Source: Patescibacteria group bacterium (lineage in GTDB: Bacteria; Patescibacteriota; Microgenomatia; Levybacterales; UBA12049). From it: DNA of 64,000 nt. The DNA is taken from NCBI GenBank assembly GCA_023485865.1, contig JAMCZC010000002.1, forward strand, positions 1,000 to 64,999. Direction: 5' to 3'. The notes under the pieces were generated by a model. It was not told where the DNA came from and searched no databases. It saw only the letters and a program-made list of their open reading frames with translations. The translations under genes and the position numbers were made by a program. Below are positions 1,997 to 44,340 of the stretch, piece by piece (position 1 is the first letter of the stretch; each line of letters begins with the position of its first letter).

Positions 1997-3382
1997 TTAC
2001 ACAGTAAATTTGAATCCGCGGCCTTTTACCGTTTGGATATGGTTTGGGGTATTGGGGTCGTTTTCTATTTTTTTTCTAAGCCTGAAAATAAGCTGGTCAA
2101 GGGCCTGGTTGGTAACTCCTGCAGTTGACTGCATATTTTCCCAAACTGCATTTATAATTTCTTCTCTTTCAATTATTTTTCCGGCATTTACGATAAAAAA
2201 TTTTAAGAGCTTAAATTCAGACGACGTAAGCTTATCCGAAATAACTAAATTCCCCTTTTTAACCTCATTGGAATTTTGGTCAAAAACAATCTTTTCATTT
2301 TCCGCCGAAAGCTTATTTTTTTCTAAAGCATAGTCTTTTAAAAGCGGAATCGTTAATTTGTTTTTGTCGATTAAACCAACGTTTTCAAGATAAGAAATGT
2401 CCTGATTGGCAAAATTTAAAAGCGTTAATAAGTTTTGTTCGAAAGGGTTTAGGCAGTTCCAAATGCCAAAAAGAGCGCTTCTTACGGGTTTTTGTTTAAG
2501 AAAAAACTCGCCCAGCTCCGAGCTAGACGCTAATGGTTGATTTTTGATTATTGATTTTTGATTATTGATTGTTAGAATTGCCTCCAAACAATGCCTGGTT
2601 AAATTTCCATGTCCTCCGGTTAAGGAAAGAACTTTCCCAAGCGTTTTCTTATCTATTTTTTTGCCTGTTACCTTTTCAAGATATGCAATTCTAAAATCAA
2701 GACCCGGTTTATCTAAAATAGGCAGGTACACAATTTTTCCTGCCATAAATTCGTAAAAATCTCCAAAAAATATAGGTTCAAAAATATCCTCCAGAGGTCT
2801 GGTTGCAGAAAAAACAACGGAAAAGCGGTATTTTGCCCTGTTTCTTAAAACTCTTAAGTTAGCGAAAAAATCAGCGGTTAAAGCGGGAACATATTCTTCG
2901 AACCTGTCTAAAAGGAAAACAATCGCAAGCTCTTTTTCTATGGCCAAAAAATCAATTGCCCTTTTTAGCCCCTGAAATAAAATCAACTCATCATTTAATT
3001 CGATGCTCTCTCTAAAAATTTTATTAACCGCGTCGTATTCATTTTCCATTTTTCTGCCTCTTAAAGAATCTAAAAGCCCTAGGAATATAAATTTAGTTGC
3101 GTCAAAAAGCGGTTTTTTTCTTATTTCCGAAAAATTTAAAAGCACAAAATGAAACCATTTTTGGTTTTCACCTAAATGTTTTAAGCGCACATTTCGGTTA
3201 TAAGCCAAGAGCCCTAAAAGGTTAGATCTTCCTATTCCGGGGACGCCAATTATTTGGCAGGAATTGCCCTCTTTAACAAAAGACAGAATTTTTTCAATCT
3301 CAGGAAATCTCGTATCTTCCGGATACAAAGATTCAAAATGAGAGGAATCGATTGTTAAATTGTTAAATTGTTTCATCTTCAT
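1997..3382 (-). CDS. Transcriptional regulator: N-terminal P-loop ATPase domain fused to C-terminal OmpR/PhoB-type winged-helix DNA-binding domain
   Basis: 461 aa. Walker-A-like GVPGIGRSNLLGLL near the N-terminus (Arg in place of Lys). The C-terminal ~100 aa has the OmpR trans_reg_C signature (FKLLKFFIVNAGKIIEREEIINAVWE...QALDQLIFRLRKKIE...IQTVKGRGFKFTV). Contains an in-frame 15-nt-period tandem repeat at 2536..2571. Confidence 0.55.
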   Translation of the reverse strand: MKMKQFNNLTIDSSHFESLYPEDTRFPEIEKILSFVKEGNSCQIIGVPGIGRSNLLGLLAYNRNVRLKHLGENQKWFHFVLLNFSEIRKKPLFDATKFIFLGLLDSLRGRKMENEYDAVNKIFRESIELNDELILFQGLKRAIDFLAIEKELAIVFLLDRFEEYVPALTADFFANLRVLRNRAKYRFSVVFSATRPLEDIFEPIFFGDFYEFMAGKIVYLPILDKPGLDFRIAYLEKVTGKKIDKKTLGKVLSLTGGHGNLTRHCLEAILTINNQKSIIKNQPLASSSELGEFFLKQKPVRSALFGIWNCLNPFEQNLLTLLNFANQDISYLENVGLIDKNKLTIPLLKDYALEKNKLSAENEKIVFDQNSNEVKKGNLVISDKLTSSEFKLLKFFIVNAGKIIEREEIINAVWENMQSTAGVTNQALDQLIFRLRKKIENDPNTPNHIQTVKGRGFKFTV

Positions 3383-15047: not shown

Positions 15048-15409
15048 GGGGATGCATTGCATCGACAAGATTCGCACTTTAAAAACTGCAAGCCGACAAC
15101 GACTAAATGTCGCAAAACTAGTCAAAATATAAATGCTAATCGTCAAGATTATGCACGCGCTTACGCATTTGCCTAATAACAAATTCGTAATGAGCTGTTC
15201 ATAAAGTCTTTTCTCAGCGGGACTTTTTGAGCATAAATACAGTTGAGAAATTAATAAGGAGGCCGATTAGTTCCTTATCAAATTTATAATCTTGGTTTTA
15301 TTTATTCCCTTCTATTGGAAAAGAATAGAACGACTTTTAAAAGTAGAATAAGCTTGTAGAAGTTTTTAAAATGTTTTCTTGGACTCCGGTTCATTGCCGG
15401 ACATCTCCA
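15048..15409 (+). ncRNA. ssrA: tmRNA (ssrA), standard one-piece; predicted tag peptide ANRQDYARAYAFA
   Basis: 5' end GGGGAUGCAUUGCAUCGACAAG matches the tmRNA 5' consensus (GGGG..UUCGAC). The 3' end is GGACU-CCGG-UUCAUUG-CCGG-A-CAUCUCC-A, a T-arm plus an acceptor strand pairing with the 5' GGGGAUG. That pairing includes a G3:U wobble, the AlaRS identity element, and ends with discriminator A. Internal ORF GCU AAU CGU CAA GAU UAU GCA CGC GCU UAC GCA UUU GCC UAA UAA (15135..15179) ends in the typical double stop and A-rich hydrophobic tail. Length 362 nt. Located next to smpB. Confidence 0.7.
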
Positions 15410-15413
15410 CAAA

Positions 15414-33605: not shown

Positions 33606-34055
33606 ATGAAATGTCCTTATTGCGGTAGCAAAGATACAGAAGTAGTAGAAACAAGAGACAGCGAAGACTTGGAAACCATTAGGAGAAGAAGGGCTTGCCT
33701 TAAGTGTGAGAAGAGATTTACTACTTACGAAAGAGTTGAAAATGTCAATTTGGTAGTAATAAAAAAAGACGGAAGACGAGAACAATTTAACAGAGATAAA
33801 TTAAAAAACGGAATAATCAGGTCTTGCGAGAAAACAAAAGTATCTCTTGATGACATAGAAAGAATAGTAACGGAAGTTGAAAGAGAATTAAGGGGAGAGT
33901 CGGGTGTCGAAGTGGAAAGCAAAAAAATAGGACAGCTGGTTGCAACAAGACTTAAGAAAATTGACAAGGTTGCATACATAAGATTTTCGAGCGTCTTCAG
34001 AAGGTTTGTTGACGTAGAAGATTTTGAAAAAGAAGTAAAAAAACTAATTAAATAA
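33606..34055 (+). CDS. nrdR: Transcriptional repressor NrdR
   Basis: MKCPYCGSKDTEVVETRDSEDLETIRRRRACLKCEKRFTTYERVE: zinc ribbon plus ATP-cone, highly conserved. Confidence 0.9.
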   Translation: MKCPYCGSKDTEVVETRDSEDLETIRRRRACLKCEKRFTTYERVENVNLVVIKKDGRREQFNRDKLKNGIIRSCEKTKVSLDDIERIVTEVERELRGESGVEVESKKIGQLVATRLKKIDKVAYIRFSSVFRRFVDVEDFEKEVKKLIK

Positions 34056-34058
34056 ATT

Positions 34059-36500
34059 ATGAAACTTGACGGAATAAGACAAAAAGTATTTTTAGACAGA
34101 TATTCTTTTAAAGATAAACAGGGTAATCCTATGGAAAAAACTCCCGAGGAAATGTGGAGGAGGGTTGCCAAAGGAATTGCCGGAGTTGAAAAACCGAAAG
34201 AGCGAAAAAAATGGGAAAAGAAATTTTATGATGTAATGGATGATTTCAAATTCTTGCCCGGCGGAAGAATTCTGGCAGGCGCCGGAACCGGATTTGATGT
34301 TACTTATTACAACTGTTTTGTTATCCCAAATCCGCCTGATTCTAGGGGCGGAATAATGGCAAACCTTACCCAGATGATAGAAATTATGGCCCACGGTGGC
34401 GGAGTCGGGCTTAATCTTTCAAGTCTTCGTCCAAGGGGTTCAAGGGTTAAAAAAGTAAATGGCTTTTCTTCGGGTCCGTTAAACTGGGCGGAACTTTATT
34501 CTCTGGCGACAAAAGATATTGTCCAGCAGGGTGGAAGTCGAAGGGGCGCTTTAATGCTTATGCTTTGGGATTGGCATCCCGATATCGAAGAGTTTATAAC
34601 CGTTAAACAGGATTTAAATAAAATAAACGGTGCCAATCTTTCGGTCTGCATTTCGGACGCTTTTATGGAAGCGGTAAAAAAGAACGCCGATTGGGATTTG
34701 GTTTATCCGGACTTGGATGATCCAAAATATGATAAAAAATGGACAGGAGATTTAAGTGCATGGAAAAAAGCGGGCGGGAAAATAGTTGTTAAAAAAACAG
34801 TTAAGGCGCAATATCTTTGGGATTTAATTTGTCAGGCAGCCTGGAGAAGTGCCGAGCCGGGACTCCACTTCTTAGATAGAAGCAATAAACGAAGCAATAC
34901 CTGGTATTTTGAGACATTGCTTTCAACAAATCCCTGCGGTGAACAACCTCTTTCCGCTTGGGCAGTTTGCAATTTGGGCGCAATGAATTTAGCGGCTTAT
35001 GTAAGAAGCGGAAAATTTGATTTTGAAAATTTTGGCAAAGACGTAAAAGTTGCGATGAGATTTTTGGACAATGTTATTGATGATACGTATTATTTCTACA
35101 AAGAAAACGAGAAAGTTGCCAAAGACATAAGAAGAACGGGCTTAGGAATTTTAGGCCTTGCCGATGCTTTAATAAAAATGAAAGTTAAATACGGCTCGGA
35201 AGAATCTTTAAAAATTATTGACAAAATCTTTAAAACCCTAAGGGATAATGCCTATATTGCTTCATCGGATATTGCCGAAGAAAAAGGTACTTTTCCAAAA
35301 TATAACAAGGAAAAATATCTTGCGGGATGGCATATTAAAAAATTACCGGAGGAAATAAAAGCAAAAATTGCTAAACAAGGAATAAGAAATGCAGTTTTGC
35401 TAACGGTTGCTCCGACCGGAACAACATCGCTTATCTCGGGAGTTTCATCGGGGATAGAACCGGTTTACGAATTTGAATTTTTAAGAAACGACAGACTTGG
35501 CCAGCATTTAATGTATCATCCTTTGTATGAAGAATGGAAAAAAACAAATCCCGGGAGAGCAAAACCCGACTATTTTGTTTCGGCAAACGACTTAACTCCG
35601 GAAGAGCATGTTAAAGTTCAGGCAATTGCGCAGGAATACGTTGATTCTTCGATTAGCAAAACAGTAAATGCTCCAAAGGAACATACAGTTGACGATGTAA
35701 AAAATCTCTATATGCTTTCTTATGACTCCGGTCTTAAAGGCGTTACTTATATGCGGGATGGTTCCCGTCAGGGAGTTTTGGAAAGAATAGATGATAAAAA
35801 AGAAAAAACGCAAGAAAAAGCGTCAATTCCTGTTGTAGCTCCGGTTGTTCCAAGACCTGTTATGGTTGAAGGAGTTACTTATCAAACCGAAACTCCGGTT
35901 GGAAAAACTTTTATAACGATTAATCATAACGAGAATAAAGACCCGTTTGAGGTATTTATAACCGTTGGTAAATCAGGTTCCGATGTTACCGCAATGGCAG
36001 ACGCATTGGGCAGAATGATCTCTTTAAACCTTCGTCTTAACGGAGCGCTTTCCTCAAGAGAAAGAATAAAACAGGTGGTGGCCCAGCTTATAGGTATCGG
36101 CGGAGCAAGAAGCGTTGGTTTTGGAGAAAACAAAGTCCGTTCTCTTCCTGATGCAATTGCTAAAGTTTTGTCAAAACACTTTGAATTTAGAGTAAACGGA
36201 GTTGTTGAAGATAAATCTAAGAACGGAACAAGCGGCAATGGAGCAGTTTATAAAAACGGCACCACAAACGGTCTTTCTAATGAGCATATAAAGCTTACAG
36301 CTGACGGAGTTGAAAAAAAACAAACGGATGAAATAATTAAGCTGGAACAGTTAACGCTTGGGACACAAGAAGGGCCTATGATAGCAGGGGAGGATCCGGC
36401 AACAGGACTTTCCGATATCTGCCCCGAGTGCGGAGGAGCGAGCCTTGCCTACGAAGAGGGCTGTAAAAAATGCTACGCCTGCGGATATTCGGAATGTTAA
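34059..36500 (+). CDS. nrdJ: Class II (adenosylcobalamin-dependent) ribonucleotide reductase
   Basis: 813 aa. Catalytic NPCGEQPL motif. C-terminal Zn-ribbon CPECGG...CKKCYACGYSEC typical of monomeric NrdJ. Confidence 0.85.
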   Translation: MKLDGIRQKVFLDRYSFKDKQGNPMEKTPEEMWRRVAKGIAGVEKPKERKKWEKKFYDVMDDFKFLPGGRILAGAGTGFDVTYYNCFVIPNPPDSRGGIMANLTQMIEIMAHGGGVGLNLSSLRPRGSRVKKVNGFSSGPLNWAELYSLATKDIVQQGGSRRGALMLMLWDWHPDIEEFITVKQDLNKINGANLSVCISDAFMEAVKKNADWDLVYPDLDDPKYDKKWTGDLSAWKKAGGKIVVKKTVKAQYLWDLICQAAWRSAEPGLHFLDRSNKRSNTWYFETLLSTNPCGEQPLSAWAVCNLGAMNLAAYVRSGKFDFENFGKDVKVAMRFLDNVIDDTYYFYKENEKVAKDIRRTGLGILGLADALIKMKVKYGSEESLKIIDKIFKTLRDNAYIASSDIAEEKGTFPKYNKEKYLAGWHIKKLPEEIKAKIAKQGIRNAVLLTVAPTGTTSLISGVSSGIEPVYEFEFLRNDRLGQHLMYHPLYEEWKKTNPGRAKPDYFVSANDLTPEEHVKVQAIAQEYVDSSISKTVNAPKEHTVDDVKNLYMLSYDSGLKGVTYMRDGSRQGVLERIDDKKEKTQEKASIPVVAPVVPRPVMVEGVTYQTETPVGKTFITINHNENKDPFEVFITVGKSGSDVTAMADALGRMISLNLRLNGALSSRERIKQVVAQLIGIGGARSVGFGENKVRSLPDAIAKVLSKHFEFRVNGVVEDKSKNGTSGNGAVYKNGTTNGLSNEHIKLTADGVEKKQTDEIIKLEQLTLGTQEGPMIAGEDPATGLSDICPECGGASLAYEEGCKKCYACGYSEC

Positions 36501-36640
36501 AAAAGCTAATTGCTGAGGTCGCTTACGAAATTTTTTCCGGTACGTGCGCGATGGGACTTAATCAGTCCATCAACTAATGCCCGCTAATCCGTTCCTCAAA
36601 AATTTGTAAGCTCCCCGCAATTATAATTTTGAATTAATTT

Positions 36641-37180
36641 ATGTCAGTCTATACAAGATTTGGGGATAAAGGTAAAACTTCTTTATACGGCGGGAAAGCG
36701 GTTTCTAAAGGCAGTTTAAGAATTGATGCATATGGTAGTCTTGATGAATTAAATAGCGCGATAGGGGTTGTTCTTACCGAAATTCAAAACCCCGGCGTAA
36801 AAAAAGAGTTGTTGCTTATCCAAAACGACTTATTTGCAATCGGCGCAAGTCTTGCAAGCAACATGGAGAATAAAAAACTTGGAGAATATTTAAAAAAGAG
36901 GGTTAGGGATTTTGAAAAACAAATAGACAGCTTATCGGAAAAGCTTCCCGAGCTTATGAATTTTATACTTCCGGGAGGGGGAAAAGCGGGTTCGTTTTTG
37001 CACCTTGCAAGAACTGTTTGCAGACGCTCCGAAAGAAGGGTCGTTGAACTTTTGGAAAAAGAGAACGTCAATAAAGAAACGTTAATCTATATTAATAGGC
37101 TTTCGGACTTGCTTTTTACTTTCGCAAGATATATAAATTACCAAGAAAAGAAAAAAGAAATTATCTGGTCTTCCAGATAA
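36641..37180 (+). CDS. PduO-type ATP:cob(I)alamin adenosyltransferase
   Basis: MSVYTRFGDKGKTSLYGGKAVSKGSLRIDAYGSLDELNSAIG matches the PduO/MMAB N-terminal signature. Confidence 0.8.
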   Translation: MSVYTRFGDKGKTSLYGGKAVSKGSLRIDAYGSLDELNSAIGVVLTEIQNPGVKKELLLIQNDLFAIGASLASNMENKKLGEYLKKRVRDFEKQIDSLSEKLPELMNFILPGGGKAGSFLHLARTVCRRSERRVVELLEKENVNKETLIYINRLSDLLFTFARYINYQEKKKEIIWSSR

Positions 37181-37184
37181 AATC

Positions 37185-37330
37185 TTTCGGGTGAAGAGGG
37201 TGGAATTCCCTCGCTGTGCCGCAACTGTATAGTCAGAACCCCGTTCTGCAAAGCAGAATTTGCAGAGAAAAATCTTCCGAGCAGAAGTGCATTTTTATTT
37301 TACACAACTTCTCGGAATGGGGAGTTTTTT
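37185..37330 (+). promoter_or_regulatory. Candidate cobalamin riboswitch (B12 element) in 5' leader of gene 37332..38444
   Basis: Contains GAGGG-UGGAAUU-CCCUC (the GGUGnnAAnUCC hairpin of B12 elements). This is followed by GCUGUGCCGCAACUGUA, matching the conserved GCUGnnCCGCAACnGUAA junction, then AGUCAGAACCCCG resembling the B12-box AGYCMGGAGACCKGCC. Called from memory of the consensus; not verified by a covariance model. Confidence 0.4.
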
Positions 37331-37331
37331 T

Positions 37332-38444
37332 ATGGCCGAAGCGCAATCTTACAATTACCAAAGACCAAGGGAGCTTGCCGATTCTAAAAATTTTGCCGTT
37401 GAGTACGCACCGATTGTTAACAGAAGAGAAATAGAAGACGATATCATTGCTTATCTTGGTGAATTCAGATTTGGATTAAAGAAATCCGATTATCGTTTGG
37501 TATTTTCTCGCACAGACGATGAGGGTTGGAGACTTCGTGACCCCCACAGGCTGGAATCAATGGCAATTAAAGCGCAAAGGGCGATAACAGAAAGAAGACA
37601 ACGGGGGGAAATTACGCCTAGGGAAACAGCGGAGGCTAGTGGTCTTAATTTTTTAGATCAACAGTTGCAAACTGCAAGCGAAGAGGGTTCAATCGTTTGG
37701 GCCAGTCCGCCGGGAGCAGAAAGCCAAGGCTACGGAGATTATGGATTCTTCTACATCGGACAAATTGGGAGAATGATTGCCAACAGAAGAGAAGTTGCAA
37801 TGACGGCAATCAGAGTTAACGGAAGAAGCCTTCCTGATTATGAAAAAGCTTTTAAAAGGTTGTCCGGAATTGACTTCAAATTTAAAAACCCGGAAGATTT
37901 TTTAAGAATGCCGGTGATTTTAAATGACAGTTTGCCTAAAGAGCTTATTGACAGTACTCTGGGTACTATTTTTCCAAATCAAGAAAATGTAAGCGACAAT
38001 TCGGTTGAATTTCAGTTAGCTATTGCAAGAATAAAAAATAGAATAGGAGAATTCATAGATTATTGTGCTTTTGCAACTCCGACCGAAAAAGCTAAAGCTT
38101 TTCATGCCTTAGAGAATTATTTTCTTGAGGTTAGAGAAGAGATTAGATCCGGAAAAACAGTTGTTTATCAAAAGAAACGGGAGTTCAAACAGTTGGTTGC
38201 TGACTATGGTAGCAGAAAAACTCCTGAAGTTAAAGGAAGCTGTCCTATCTCAAGCCAGAACCCTTTAAATAGCAGTAACATTTTTAATGGTGGATTTGAA
38301 GCTTTGAACAACCTAATAAACCAGGAATGGTTTACTTGTCCCAAATGTCATTACAAAGCAGACGGGCCGGTTGGAAATACCTGTCCAGGTTGTGGTTTGA
38401 CAAAGGAGGCTTATGCGCAAGAATCAGGGCAAATCTGCGAGTGA
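37332..38444 (+). CDS. hypothetical protein with C-terminal Zn-ribbon (CPKCHYK...CPGCG)
   Basis: ATG at 37332 with GGGGAG SD 9 nt upstream. The ORF-track N-terminal extension would overlap the structured leader. No family recognised. Confidence 0.5.
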   Translation: MAEAQSYNYQRPRELADSKNFAVEYAPIVNRREIEDDIIAYLGEFRFGLKKSDYRLVFSRTDDEGWRLRDPHRLESMAIKAQRAITERRQRGEITPRETAEASGLNFLDQQLQTASEEGSIVWASPPGAESQGYGDYGFFYIGQIGRMIANRREVAMTAIRVNGRSLPDYEKAFKRLSGIDFKFKNPEDFLRMPVILNDSLPKELIDSTLGTIFPNQENVSDNSVEFQLAIARIKNRIGEFIDYCAFATPTEKAKAFHALENYFLEVREEIRSGKTVVYQKKREFKQLVADYGSRKTPEVKGSCPISSQNPLNSSNIFNGGFEALNNLINQEWFTCPKCHYKADGPVGNTCPGCGLTKEAYAQESGQICE

Positions 38445-38488: not shown

Positions 38489-38896
38489 ATGGATGATACG
38501 TCTCAAAAGCAAAATCAACATCAAGTTCAAGGTCAAAATCAAACCCAACAACCTGTAAGTCCCGTAAGCACTCCTCAAAAAGAGGTTGAAGCGGCCCCTG
38601 TTAGTGACTATATTGTGCCTTCGGAGGTAACGCCTAGAATCGAAAAGGAAGTTTCTGAAGCGGGAGTCAAAGAAGTGGGTAAGGCTCCACAACTTACAGA
38701 AGAGCATTTTAAAACCGGGATTAAGCATGCGCCGGAGTCAACTCCGGTTCCAAAAGAACCAACGGGAGCAGTTAAATTGCCAATGACGAAAAGCCAAGCA
38801 GAGCAACAAGCTAAAGGAAATCCCGACGACGCTGCTACTTGGCTTGCGAATTTTATTTTAAGACTGTTAAAGAAAATGCGACTGGTAAATAATTAA
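38489..38896 (+). CDS. Gln/Pro-rich low-complexity small protein with C-terminal amphipathic helix (hypothetical)
   Basis: 135 aa, QNQHQVQGQNQTQQP... Ends 4 nt before the ATPase gene and is probably co-transcribed. Confidence 0.45.
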   Translation: MDDTSQKQNQHQVQGQNQTQQPVSPVSTPQKEVEAAPVSDYIVPSEVTPRIEKEVSEAGVKEVGKAPQLTEEHFKTGIKHAPESTPVPKEPTGAVKLPMTKSQAEQQAKGNPDDAATWLANFILRLLKKMRLVNN

Positions 38897-41358: not shown

Positions 41359-41431
41359 GGAGCTGTAGTTCATCGGTCAGAACGCGACTCTTATAAAGTC
41401 GATGCAGATGGTTCAACTCCATCCAGCTCCA
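41359..41431 (+). tRNA. tRNA with anticodon UAU (tRNA-Ile decoding AUA)
   Basis: Acceptor GGAGCTG/CAGCTCC. D-stem GTTC/GAAC. Anticodon stem-loop CGACT-CTTATAA-AGTCG with U33 and anticodon T-A-T. T-arm GATGG-TTCAACT-CCATC. Discriminator A. No CCA. Confidence 0.7.
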
Positions 41432-41523
41432 CAAGCAGATGTTCTTGCCTGCCCTTCCGAAGTTTTAACGAAGGAGGGGTTCGAACCCAAGCAGACGCAC
41501 CGCGTCAAACGCTGCTTCGCCTA

Positions 41524-44024: not shown

Positions 44025-44340
44025 CACGCGGGGTAGTGTACAGTGCACGTGAGGCTTAACATAATGGGCCGTTTTGATAGTAATAACAAAACAGTATTCA
44101 GCTATATCGGTGAACTCCTAAAATTTTAGGACAATACCGAGGGAAGACTCGCCTAGGCGAGAACCCGTAGAGACTACACGCTGGGCCCCCCGATTAAATC
44201 GGGGGTGAAGATATAGTCCGACACTTCAAGTAATTGAAGAAACAGATGCATAATCTCACAGGCTAGGCGCAACTCCTAGCCCCGCAACACTTCGACTCAC
44301 TTACGTTCACTCAGTGTAAGCACTTTAAGAATGAAAAGAA
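44025..44340 (+). ncRNA. Candidate structured ncRNA or long structured murD leader (unclassified)
   Basis: ~320 nt with no ORF over 20 codons. GC content is clearly above the surrounding intergenic DNA. Promoter-like TGcTACAAT at 44009..44017. At least five strong hairpins, including CUUCAA-GUAA-UUGAAG (GNRA loop), CCCCCG-AUUAAAU-CGGGGG, GGCUAGG-CGCAACU-CCUAGCC and CUCGC-CUAG-GCGAG. Does not fit RNase P, SRP, tmRNA or 6S consensus by eye. Confidence 0.35.

Follow-up and report, generated by a model that had tools for sequence, protein, structure and literature searches.

Between a pduO-type adenosyltransferase gene and an orphan gene, here called X, a 64,000-nucleotide stretch of Patescibacteria DNA (contig JAMCZC010000002.1; hereafter the window) carries a compact RNA element that, judged from its sequence and its conservation in related loci, is almost certainly a genuine class II cobalamin riboswitch of the OFF type. 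For the explanation as a whole, in which this switch is an OFF attenuator and X a partner of the adenosyltransferase PduO when B12 is scarce, we see an even chance. Its functional part on its own, X as a cobalamin-processing or escort partner of PduO, is a tentative proposal by analogy that we place somewhat below even. The aptamer family is already in Rfam, and the window element adds a new member to it. What is new is a large orphan family with B12-riboswitch control and PduO partnership as its defining genomic trait, the presence of one or two class II switches as predicted attenuators inside the nrdJ operon, and the putative use of a kissing-loop hairpin, P13, as anti-antiterminator for a combined terminator and ribosome-site sequestor. 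No paper on such a system was found in the full-text literature on Patescibacteria, the candidate phyla radiation (CPR) or Microgenomates together with cobalamin riboswitches or adenosyltransferases.

The cobalamin aptamer

A scan of the whole 64-kb window with Rfam 15 at gathering thresholds (GA) placed RF01689 (AdoCbl-II) at 37171-37251 (+), with 46.4 bits vs a GA of 36.5 (E 5.1e-8; model positions 1-81 of 81), and RF01689 was the top-scoring member of clan CL00101 at this site. The lineage model R1, built from 17 aptamers, scores the same element at 76.7 bits. A preliminary description of this DNA, made without database searches, had proposed a compact cobalamin element from three motifs, and its proposal holds: the motifs are present in the order given, the Rfam match is significant, the leader structure is conserved in homologues, and Rfam, covariation and conservation in about 90 loci agree on a class II riboswitch. 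The start of the aptamer, put at 37185, had to be corrected to 37171/37175, and its 5′ part runs across the stop codon of pduO (37178-37180). The elements of the aptamer are:

37196-37212 (+): GGUGGAAUUCC, the P5/L5 hairpin element, in the Rfam alignment GAGGG-UGGAAUU-CCCUC, with L5 as the presumed kissing-loop partner of L13
37213-37229 (+): GCUGUGCCGCAACUGUA, second quoted motif
37231-37243 (+): AGUCAGAACCCCG, third quoted motif

With 81 nt the window aptamer is compact; its P6 consists of a 3-bp stem and a 7-nt loop and the P6 extension of class I (RF00174/RF01482) is absent, while the P6 region of some relatives has short insertions. At the pduO stop lies a perfect palindrome, TTATCTGG-TCTT-CCAGATAA (37161-37180, +), and it shares nucleotides with the 5′ strand of the outermost helix that Rfam aligns. 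In the minimum free energy (MFE) structure of the full leader the palindrome forms in place of this helix, and the true P1 may therefore be shorter than in the Rfam drawing.

Conservation of the riboswitch across related loci

Related loci (numbered with the prefix L) were collected through protein X, not through the RNA: 28 from GTDB genomes by C-terminal peptide patterns, 80 from metagenomes by patterns from the N-terminal core, and 1 further contig. The tally set comprises 105 non-redundant loci with an X homologue, the window included, of which 94 are informative and 11 are cut too close to judge; the patterns came from the X family itself, so the sample represents its better-conserved part. 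Some records titled “uncultured Gammaproteobacteria”, “Methylomirabilota”, “Lysobacterales” or “Acidiferrales” (L003, L010, L011, L014-L017, L019, L022, L025, L026 and L028) carry an island of the Levyibacteriota type. Judged by gene content these GTDB records are probably mislabelled or contaminated bins, and since their titles were at odds with that content, the titles were ignored.

An aptamer of the RF01689 class precedes X or its pduO in 91 of the 94 informative loci, a count inflated by shared ancestry, as many loci come from related lineages. It stands directly before X in 65 loci and, in the other 26, before a pduO that overlaps or abuts X. By layout, 45 loci read pduO-RS-X (RS, riboswitch aptamer), 26 read RS-(...)-pduO-X and 12 read RS-X with no pduO in view; 8 loci carry two aptamers, with pduO and X each preceded by one. 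The RS-X arrangement is kept away from both pduO and nrdJ in L082, L105 and L107. Among the 26 GTDB loci scanned, 15 have an RF01689 match at or above the gathering score ahead of the X homologue or of its pduO, and sub-threshold matches to families of the cobalamin clan occupied the same position in 6 further ones; R1 detected the aptamer in nearly all loci.

Three informative loci lack an aptamer hit (L020, L024 and L056). The homologue in L024 shares only the ribbon with X, and nothing was found before the homologue in L056. In L020, a Curtissbacteria metagenome-assembled genome (MAG), a sub-threshold match to class I (RF01482; 3492-3680, +; 33.1 bits, E 0.008) lies before the X homologue, which suggests that the riboswitch class was swapped before the same gene.

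Covariation supports the structure. In an alignment of 90 aptamers from 82 sources, which was fitted to the model and therefore favours the structure, 90.8% of the cells were paired, vs 30-45% in controls with slid partners; double changes occurred at 12 of the 16 pairs, and the covariation score was 0.547 vs 0.04-0.13 in the controls. P5 was 98.6% paired, with double changes in four of its five pairs and four to five pair types per position.

Expression platform and polarity of the switch

Downstream of the aptamer, three elements can be drawn:

37274-37287 (+): P13 regulatory hairpin, stem CUUC/GAAG and loop CGAGCA (37278-37283), after a 22-nt linker following the aptamer
37275-37317 (+): antiterminator, UUCCGAG (37275-37281) pairing with CUCGGAA (37311-37317), which excludes P13 and the terminator alike
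37306-37331 (+): intrinsic terminator and sequestor of the ribosome-binding site (RBS) from the terminator scan, AACUUCUC-GGAAU-GGGGAGUU (37306-37326) and U7 (37325-37331)

The upstream antiterminator strand comprises the 5′ arm of P13 and half of its loop, and the downstream strand comprises the 5′ arm and apex of the terminator. The U7 tract directly abuts the AUG at 37332 and the Shine-Dalgarno motif GGGGAG (37319-37324) sits in the 3′ arm of the terminator hairpin, which thus would be both an intrinsic terminator and a sequestor of the ribosome site. Terminators and promoters were called here by consensus matches only. Folded with RNAfold, the platform alone adopts the antiterminator as its MFE structure (-17.0 kcal/mol); with P13 enforced and its loop kept single-stranded, which mimics the kissing complex, the terminator forms (-12.9 kcal/mol). 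From these models we infer the OFF polarity. At low B12, UUCCGAG would pair with CUCGGAA, keeping the terminator open and the Shine-Dalgarno motif free, and X would be expressed, probably along with the small downstream gene Y. When B12 is bound, L5 of the aptamer would capture P13 via the CGAGCA loop and withhold the antiterminator strand; the terminator/sequestor with its U7 tract would then form, transcription would end at the AUG and the ribosome site would be hidden.

The platform is conserved as well. The L13 loop CGAGCA occurs in 63 of 85 distinct leaders and single-base variants of it in 17 more, and most of the 85 end in a hairpin that contains GAGGAG, with U6-8 abutting the AUG. Compensatory variants of the antiterminator were found in L037 (CUUUCGAG/CUCGAAAG), L045 (CUCUCGAG/CUCGAGAG), L065 and L069 (CUUCCGAAG/CUUCGGAA), and L015 and L044 (UCCCGAG/CUCGGGA). 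The 5′-UG of L5 (consensus U-G-N-R-A-N-U) is complementary to the CA-3′ of L13, and both loops are too invariant for a test of covariation. At least 13 leaders are of a direct type without a terminator, in which P13 itself carries the Shine-Dalgarno motif in its 3′ arm, a few nt upstream of the AUG (e.g., L010, L016, L027, the second aptamer of L042, L082, L093-L095, L105 and L107); this figure comes from leaders read by eye, as an automatic split was contaminated by chance AUGs.

These features bear on the reading of the RNA as a relic or as an ON switch, with the hairpin and its U7 merely the terminator of pduO and X not repressed by B12. Activating corrinoid riboswitches do exist (PMC10327014), and a terminator would fit the end of a pduO transcription unit. 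However, the aptamer is full-length, above GA and covarying, the logic of P13, antiterminator and terminator is itself conserved and covarying, and the leaders without a terminator show the classical class II OFF design with the Shine-Dalgarno motif in P13. We regard this reading as extremely improbable.

The closest described system is env8HyCbl, a riboswitch of the same class (RF01689, formerly AdoCbl-variant), in which the P13 loop has a purine run, G96-A97-G98 (PMC5028336). Both share a compact four-way junction of about 80 nt without a large P6 extension and a P13 that follows a single-stranded linker; the G-A-G run in L13 of the window parallels that of env8. The translational design of env8HyCbl, with the RBS in P13, recurs in the direct-type leaders. 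In the window and most relatives, in contrast, P13 does not carry the RBS and would instead act as an anti-antiterminator that releases the terminator/sequestor. A second difference is that the window switch lies inside an operon, overlapping the stop codon of the preceding gene.

Operon organisation and neighbouring genes

The riboswitch belongs to a conserved island with the following genes:

33606..34055 (+): nrdR, a repressor with Zn ribbon and ATP-cone (Pfam Zn_ribbon_NrdR 8.7e-20, ATP-cone 1.2e-19), which opens the island and is syntenic in most loci
34059..36500 (+): nrdJ, class II ribonucleotide reductase (RNR), dependent on adenosylcobalamin (AdoCbl) (Pfam Ribonuc_red_lgC 2.6e-124, lgN, TSCPD)
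36641..37180 (+): pduO-type ATP:cob(I)alamin adenosyltransferase, 179 aa (Pfam Cob_adeno_trans, PF01923, 2.3e-57, full length 1-171 of 171)
37332..38444 (+): regulated gene X, 370 aa, ATG at 37332 and stop at 38442-38444
38489..38896 (+): protein Y, 135 aa, low-complexity and Q/P-rich, with a basic amphipathic C-terminal helix
38900..41272 (+): VirD4/TraD-like coupling ATPase (Pfam TraG-D_C, TrwB_AAD_bind; NCBIfam TraD)

Pfam thereby confirms the neighbours named in the preliminary description, a B12-dependent RNR, PduO and an ATPase of the type IV secretion system (T4SS) type, the Q/P-rich protein being present without a model. The regulated open reading frame (ORF) is real, with CPKC...CPGC near its C terminus, but is one residue shorter than the 371 aa described.

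In many loci the aptamer overlaps, or starts within a few nt of, the stop codon of the preceding nrdJ or pduO, and a consensus scan of 36500-37171 (+) in the window returned no promoter-like site, which is weak evidence. The switches are therefore most simply explained as attenuators inside one nrdR-nrdJ-pduO-X unit, and the window switch is likely an attenuator within the nrdR-nrdJ-pduO unit. Sufficient B12 would end the transcript behind nrdJ or behind pduO, and a shortage would let it continue. The gap between pduO and X is informative, too. Where it holds no aptamer, the frames in most loci overlap (-19, -8, -4, -1) or lie no more than 5 nt apart; gaps of about 60 nt or longer are nearly always occupied by an aptamer. 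This pattern marks X as the constant target of the switch and pduO as a frequent co-target.

The genes Y and VirD4 had been suggested to be co-regulated with X. For Y this is plausible. In 47 of 74 loci X is directly followed by a Y homologue of about 140 aa, also in loci where the VirD4-like gene is missing, and the closest pairs lie 13-100 nt apart; in many of the other loci this position is taken by an ORF of 130-150 aa that has no family assignment, and the terminator scan predicted no terminator in the X-Y interval of the window. Y is thus probably co-transcribed with X. No Pfam model matched Y, whose family is of low complexity with a conserved ...AG(V/I)...H... centre and a C-terminal helix W-L-A...LKK. 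The link to the ATPase is weaker: it lies downstream of X in 38 loci, is absent from 25 of the 63 with at least 2.5 kb of downstream sequence, and is far better conserved than X (about 68-87% vs 25-50% identity). It is probably a syntenic neighbour rather than a partner, and not part of the B12 unit. Directly after it the window has a tRNA-Ile gene with anticodon UAU (41359-41432, +), and a tRNA recurs there in related loci.

Five related loci have an nrdJ that is split at its NPC active-site motif, near codon 293, by 345-409 aa of inserted sequence in the same frame (L003 1329-2389, L013 432-1660, L028 992-2028, L037 1260-2380 and L052 1491-2566). The insert ends are intein-like, with a Cys at the start and ...SANG(L/M)I(V/I)SN|C at the end; four of the five are stop-free and L003 has one stop. 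The nrdJ of the window carries no insert.

Protein X, an orphan family

A protein identical to X has been deposited from a Patescibacteria MAG, annotated as hypothetical (P0001). X had been described as matching none of the usual targets of B12 riboswitches and as a possible new B12-responsive function, and both points are supported, as no Pfam, NCBIfam or PDB sequence match to a described family was found and the family is near-always under B12-riboswitch control. A word-seeded search returned 81 relatives, and an exhaustive profile search 740 clusters (50% identity) at E <= 1e-3, 211 of them at E <= 1e-30; among the 150 best profile matches, lengths are mostly 330-510 aa, with a few shorter fragments. 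Searches with 50 aligned and 10 longer members gave only marginal Zn-ribbon or rubredoxin-like matches to the tail. The ten members with extensions showed no extra Pfam domain, and the N-terminal extensions and neighbouring ORFs of atypical loci (L010, L019, L022 and L107) contained no B12-related domains, DUF4430/DUF6580 in L082 excepted. The longer proteins at the position of X in L011-L028 are divergent members of the same family. X is a Patescibacteria-specific orphan family without a known fold relative.

The AlphaFold2 model of X is confident (pLDDT 82.6, pTM 0.74) and consists of a beta2-helices-beta3 PAS-like domain (~31-178), a helical bundle (203-292), a disordered S/N/G-rich linker (305-332) and a small C-terminal knuckle. 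Its cysteines are Cys304 in a GSC motif, the four of the Cys4 knuckle (C336/C339/C351/C354) and Cys369, and the conserved motifs are YLGEYR, RExAE, W-SPPG-x4-GYGDYGF, MTAIRVE, ALENYAL and PPxVxGSC. Among 208 members, E44 is conserved in 100% and the GSC Cys304 in 98%; 207 have at least four Cys within the last 60 residues and 166 have one within the last four. In distant members the ribbon is swapped for other Cys-rich tails, and the Cys near the chain end is kept in most. Neither a signal peptide nor a membrane segment was detected in X.

A ligand-binding PAS-like domain joined to a Zn ribbon would also fit a sensor or regulator that, on a metabolite signal, tunes the expression or activity of nrdJ and pduO or tethers to Y. 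Yet scans of the family detected no DNA-binding or output domain, a frame overlap with an enzyme gene would be unusual for a regulator, and distant members have quite different Cys-rich tails in which mostly the terminal Cys is kept. We consider a regulatory role very unlikely.

An ungapped alignment joins the knuckle of the window protein to the rubredoxin-like Fe(Cys)4 domain of rubrerythrin (PDB 3mps, 1nnq; RUBY_RBDX), with identical CxxC-x11-CxxC spacing and a CPxCG second knuckle, but the match reaches only E 0.03 (PDB). Other rubredoxin-like scores are likewise marginal, with nigerythrin of NCBIfam at 0.09 and PF21349 (RUBY_RBDX) in 4 of 50 members, at best with E 0.0062. Unlike rubrerythrin, X has no diiron four-helix-bundle domain.

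A second likeness concerns the neighbour. Class II RNRs have a Cys-rich, zinc-finger C-terminal tail that serves as a redox shuttle (PMC5704485), in which a flexible, low-complexity linker leads to a CxxC...CxxC metal site and a Cys that ends the chain. The tail of NrdJ in the window (36300-36500, +) has a low-complexity S/N/G linker followed by CPECGG-x8-CKKCYACGYSEC, and the tail of X, encoded 830 nt downstream of nrdJ, mirrors this architecture. The X tail, in contrast, sits on an unrelated PAS-like core, and in a pairwise comparison the two tails were not significantly similar (E 0.05).

In other bacteria metE and nrdDG are repressed by B12. By the same logic X could be a B12-sparing or B12-independent substitute, induced when the B12-dependent RNR fails, through an alternative deoxynucleotide route or a stress function. 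An OFF switch beside the only visible B12-dependent enzyme and a thiol-rich tail built like those of RNRs would be expected of such a protein, but X resembles no RNR, deoxynucleoside kinase or deoxyribosyltransferase and the tail similarity does not reach significance. Furthermore, X shares its aptamer with pduO in 26 loci, where the genes usually overlap or abut, which ties X to the making of AdoCbl. A substitute role thus appears improbable.

A candidate capture and import module

Some related islands contain genes for a DUF4430 and a DUF6580 protein. In L082, L094 and L099, RS-X directly follows this pair; in L019, L048, L076 and L086 the pair lies between nrdJ and pduO, as does DUF6580 alone in L087. 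The positions are:

L082 3789-4711, L094 48-970, L099 994-1915, L048 3442-4204: DUF4430/DUF6580 module
L076 3186-4110, L086 3227-4053, L019 3599-4355: DUF4430/DUF6580 module
L087 1469-1987: DUF6580 only

The DUF4430 protein (PF14478, 4e-20) has an N-terminal hydrophobic anchor, and the DUF6580 protein (PF20221, 1e-46) several hydrophobic, apparently membrane-spanning stretches. DUF4430 is the C-terminal domain of transcobalamins (PMC4350170). The module stands behind its own full aptamer in L019, L086 and L087 and behind a partial match in L048. This last match (3197-3238, the same in L049) covers only model positions 22-63 at 45.6 bits upstream of DUF4430, and could mean that the switch is degenerate or that a large insertion interrupts its alignment to the model. 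From their domains, DUF4430 and DUF6580 are a candidate module for B12 capture and import. The window has no copy, and most islands have none nearby.

With a separate module that fits capture and import, a cytoplasmic role is left for X. The earlier suggestion that X serves uptake or salvage can be narrowed accordingly: uptake is unlikely, and as the main role of X was rejected, since X lacks both signal and membrane segments and the candidate uptake module is a different set of genes, whereas cytoplasmic salvage or processing together with PduO fits better. A related possibility is that X is a passive cytoplasmic trap or store of B12, or an accessory to DUF4430/DUF6580 uptake, which binds tightly, makes uptake directional and hands the cofactor on without any chemistry. 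X would be B12-repressed as uptake genes are, it directly follows the module in three loci, and a PAS-like core is a typical fold for binding small ligands. Set against this are the absence of the module near X in most islands including the window, the translational coupling of X to pduO rather than to membrane proteins, and the 98% conserved GSC Cys, tethered Cys4 knuckle and terminal Cys, which resemble catalytic or redox equipment. Overall, a role without chemistry seems to us quite unlikely.

Proposed role of X

At the level of sequence, the loci establish X as a predicted soluble protein under B12-riboswitch control throughout the family and often translationally coupled to PduO. Its chemistry we infer from genomic context and protein anatomy only. 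As a partner of PduO, X would be induced when B12 is scarce, along with pduO and, where present, the import module, and would act between import and adenosylation. Imported cobalamin would bind the PAS-like pocket with its conserved residues E44, R46, R97, E98, E101, Y134, D136, Y137 and R161; Cys304 and the mobile tail would take off or exchange its upper ligand, achieve a thiol- or metal-mediated reduction of the cobalt, or do both, and X would pass the cofactor to PduO, which would supply AdoCbl to the class II RNR.

Known systems offer tentative functional analogies. The human route through CblC (MMACHC), CblD (MMADHC) and MMAB, a PduO-type adenosyltransferase, has a like order of a transcobalamin-type binder (here DUF4430), a cytoplasmic step and a PduO-type enzyme, and X occupies the genomic position expected for the processing or escort step; CblC and CblD, however, are nitroreductase-like and similar to X neither in sequence nor in fold. 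In the PduS-PduO pair the partner is likewise encoded with PduO. PduS, a flavoprotein with two 4Fe-4S clusters, supplies reduced cobalamin, and X has a possible metal or redox module; it differs in having no flavin or Fe-S signature, only the Cys4 knuckle and two further Cys.

Several points weigh against such a role, or against parts of the scheme around it. B12-repressed genes can be B12-independent substitutes, so that regulatory logic alone leaves the function of X unfixed, and for the step from cob(II) to cob(I) both rubredoxin-type centres and dithiols are weak reductants. The match to rubredoxin-like domains is of marginal significance, and Zn may be the metal bound at the site. X has no sequence or fold similarity to CblC/MMACHC, CblD, PduS, BtuF, BtuM, the B12-binding Rossmann domain or transcobalamin, and no His is conserved in its core. 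A single group of related lineages (Levyibacteriota and relatives) accounts for much of the synteny. On the RNA side, covariation between L5 and L13 was sought, and both loops proved near-invariant, which leaves the kissing pairs putative; moreover, the ligand form (AdoCbl vs hydroxocobalamin or methylcobalamin) cannot be read from the aptamer sequence, for which no applicable ligand-selectivity rule was found in PMC6158498.

The more specific proposal, that X is a new class of cobalamin-processing enzyme or chaperone with an unseen fold, in which Cys304 and the Cys tail strip or reduce cobalamin and load PduO, would add to this scheme and is, in our view, rather unlikely.

Further RNA features of the window

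A group I intron (RF00028, 78.8 bits) was found at 44047-44240 (+). Its flanks (~44028-44057 and ~44255-44290) look like tRNA halves, with GCGGGGT...GTGAG on the 5′ side and CTCAC...CTAGG-CGCAACT-CCTAG-CCCCGCA on the 3′ side; ARAGORN made no call for an intron-split tRNA gene at ~44028-44290. The same intron family occurs in L008 (12162-12354) and L009 (12491-12680). A tmRNA gene lies at 15048-15412 (+; 118.5 bits).

Implications for Patescibacteria

Patescibacteria have tiny genomes and obtain cofactors from partners. As the class II RNR is the B12-dependent enzyme on view in these islands, their DNA synthesis may hinge on acquiring and adenosylating B12. To our knowledge, the bacterial steps between import and adenosylation (ligand removal, reduction and hand-over) are poorly defined, and the X family, with about 740 clusters and almost never without a B12 riboswitch, is a strong candidate for a missing step in cobalamin trafficking. 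Since it has no known fold relative, a B12-bound structure would be informative. The leaders, for their part, provide some 85 natural versions of a class II platform whose kissing-loop hairpin would control a terminator instead of the ribosome site, and are useful for mechanism studies and engineering. If the proposed role of X is true, these organisms would possess a complete, minimal B12 salvage line of capture, import, X, PduO and NrdJ, DUF4430 and DUF6580 included, whose expression would be graded by attenuator riboswitches inside the nrdJ operon.

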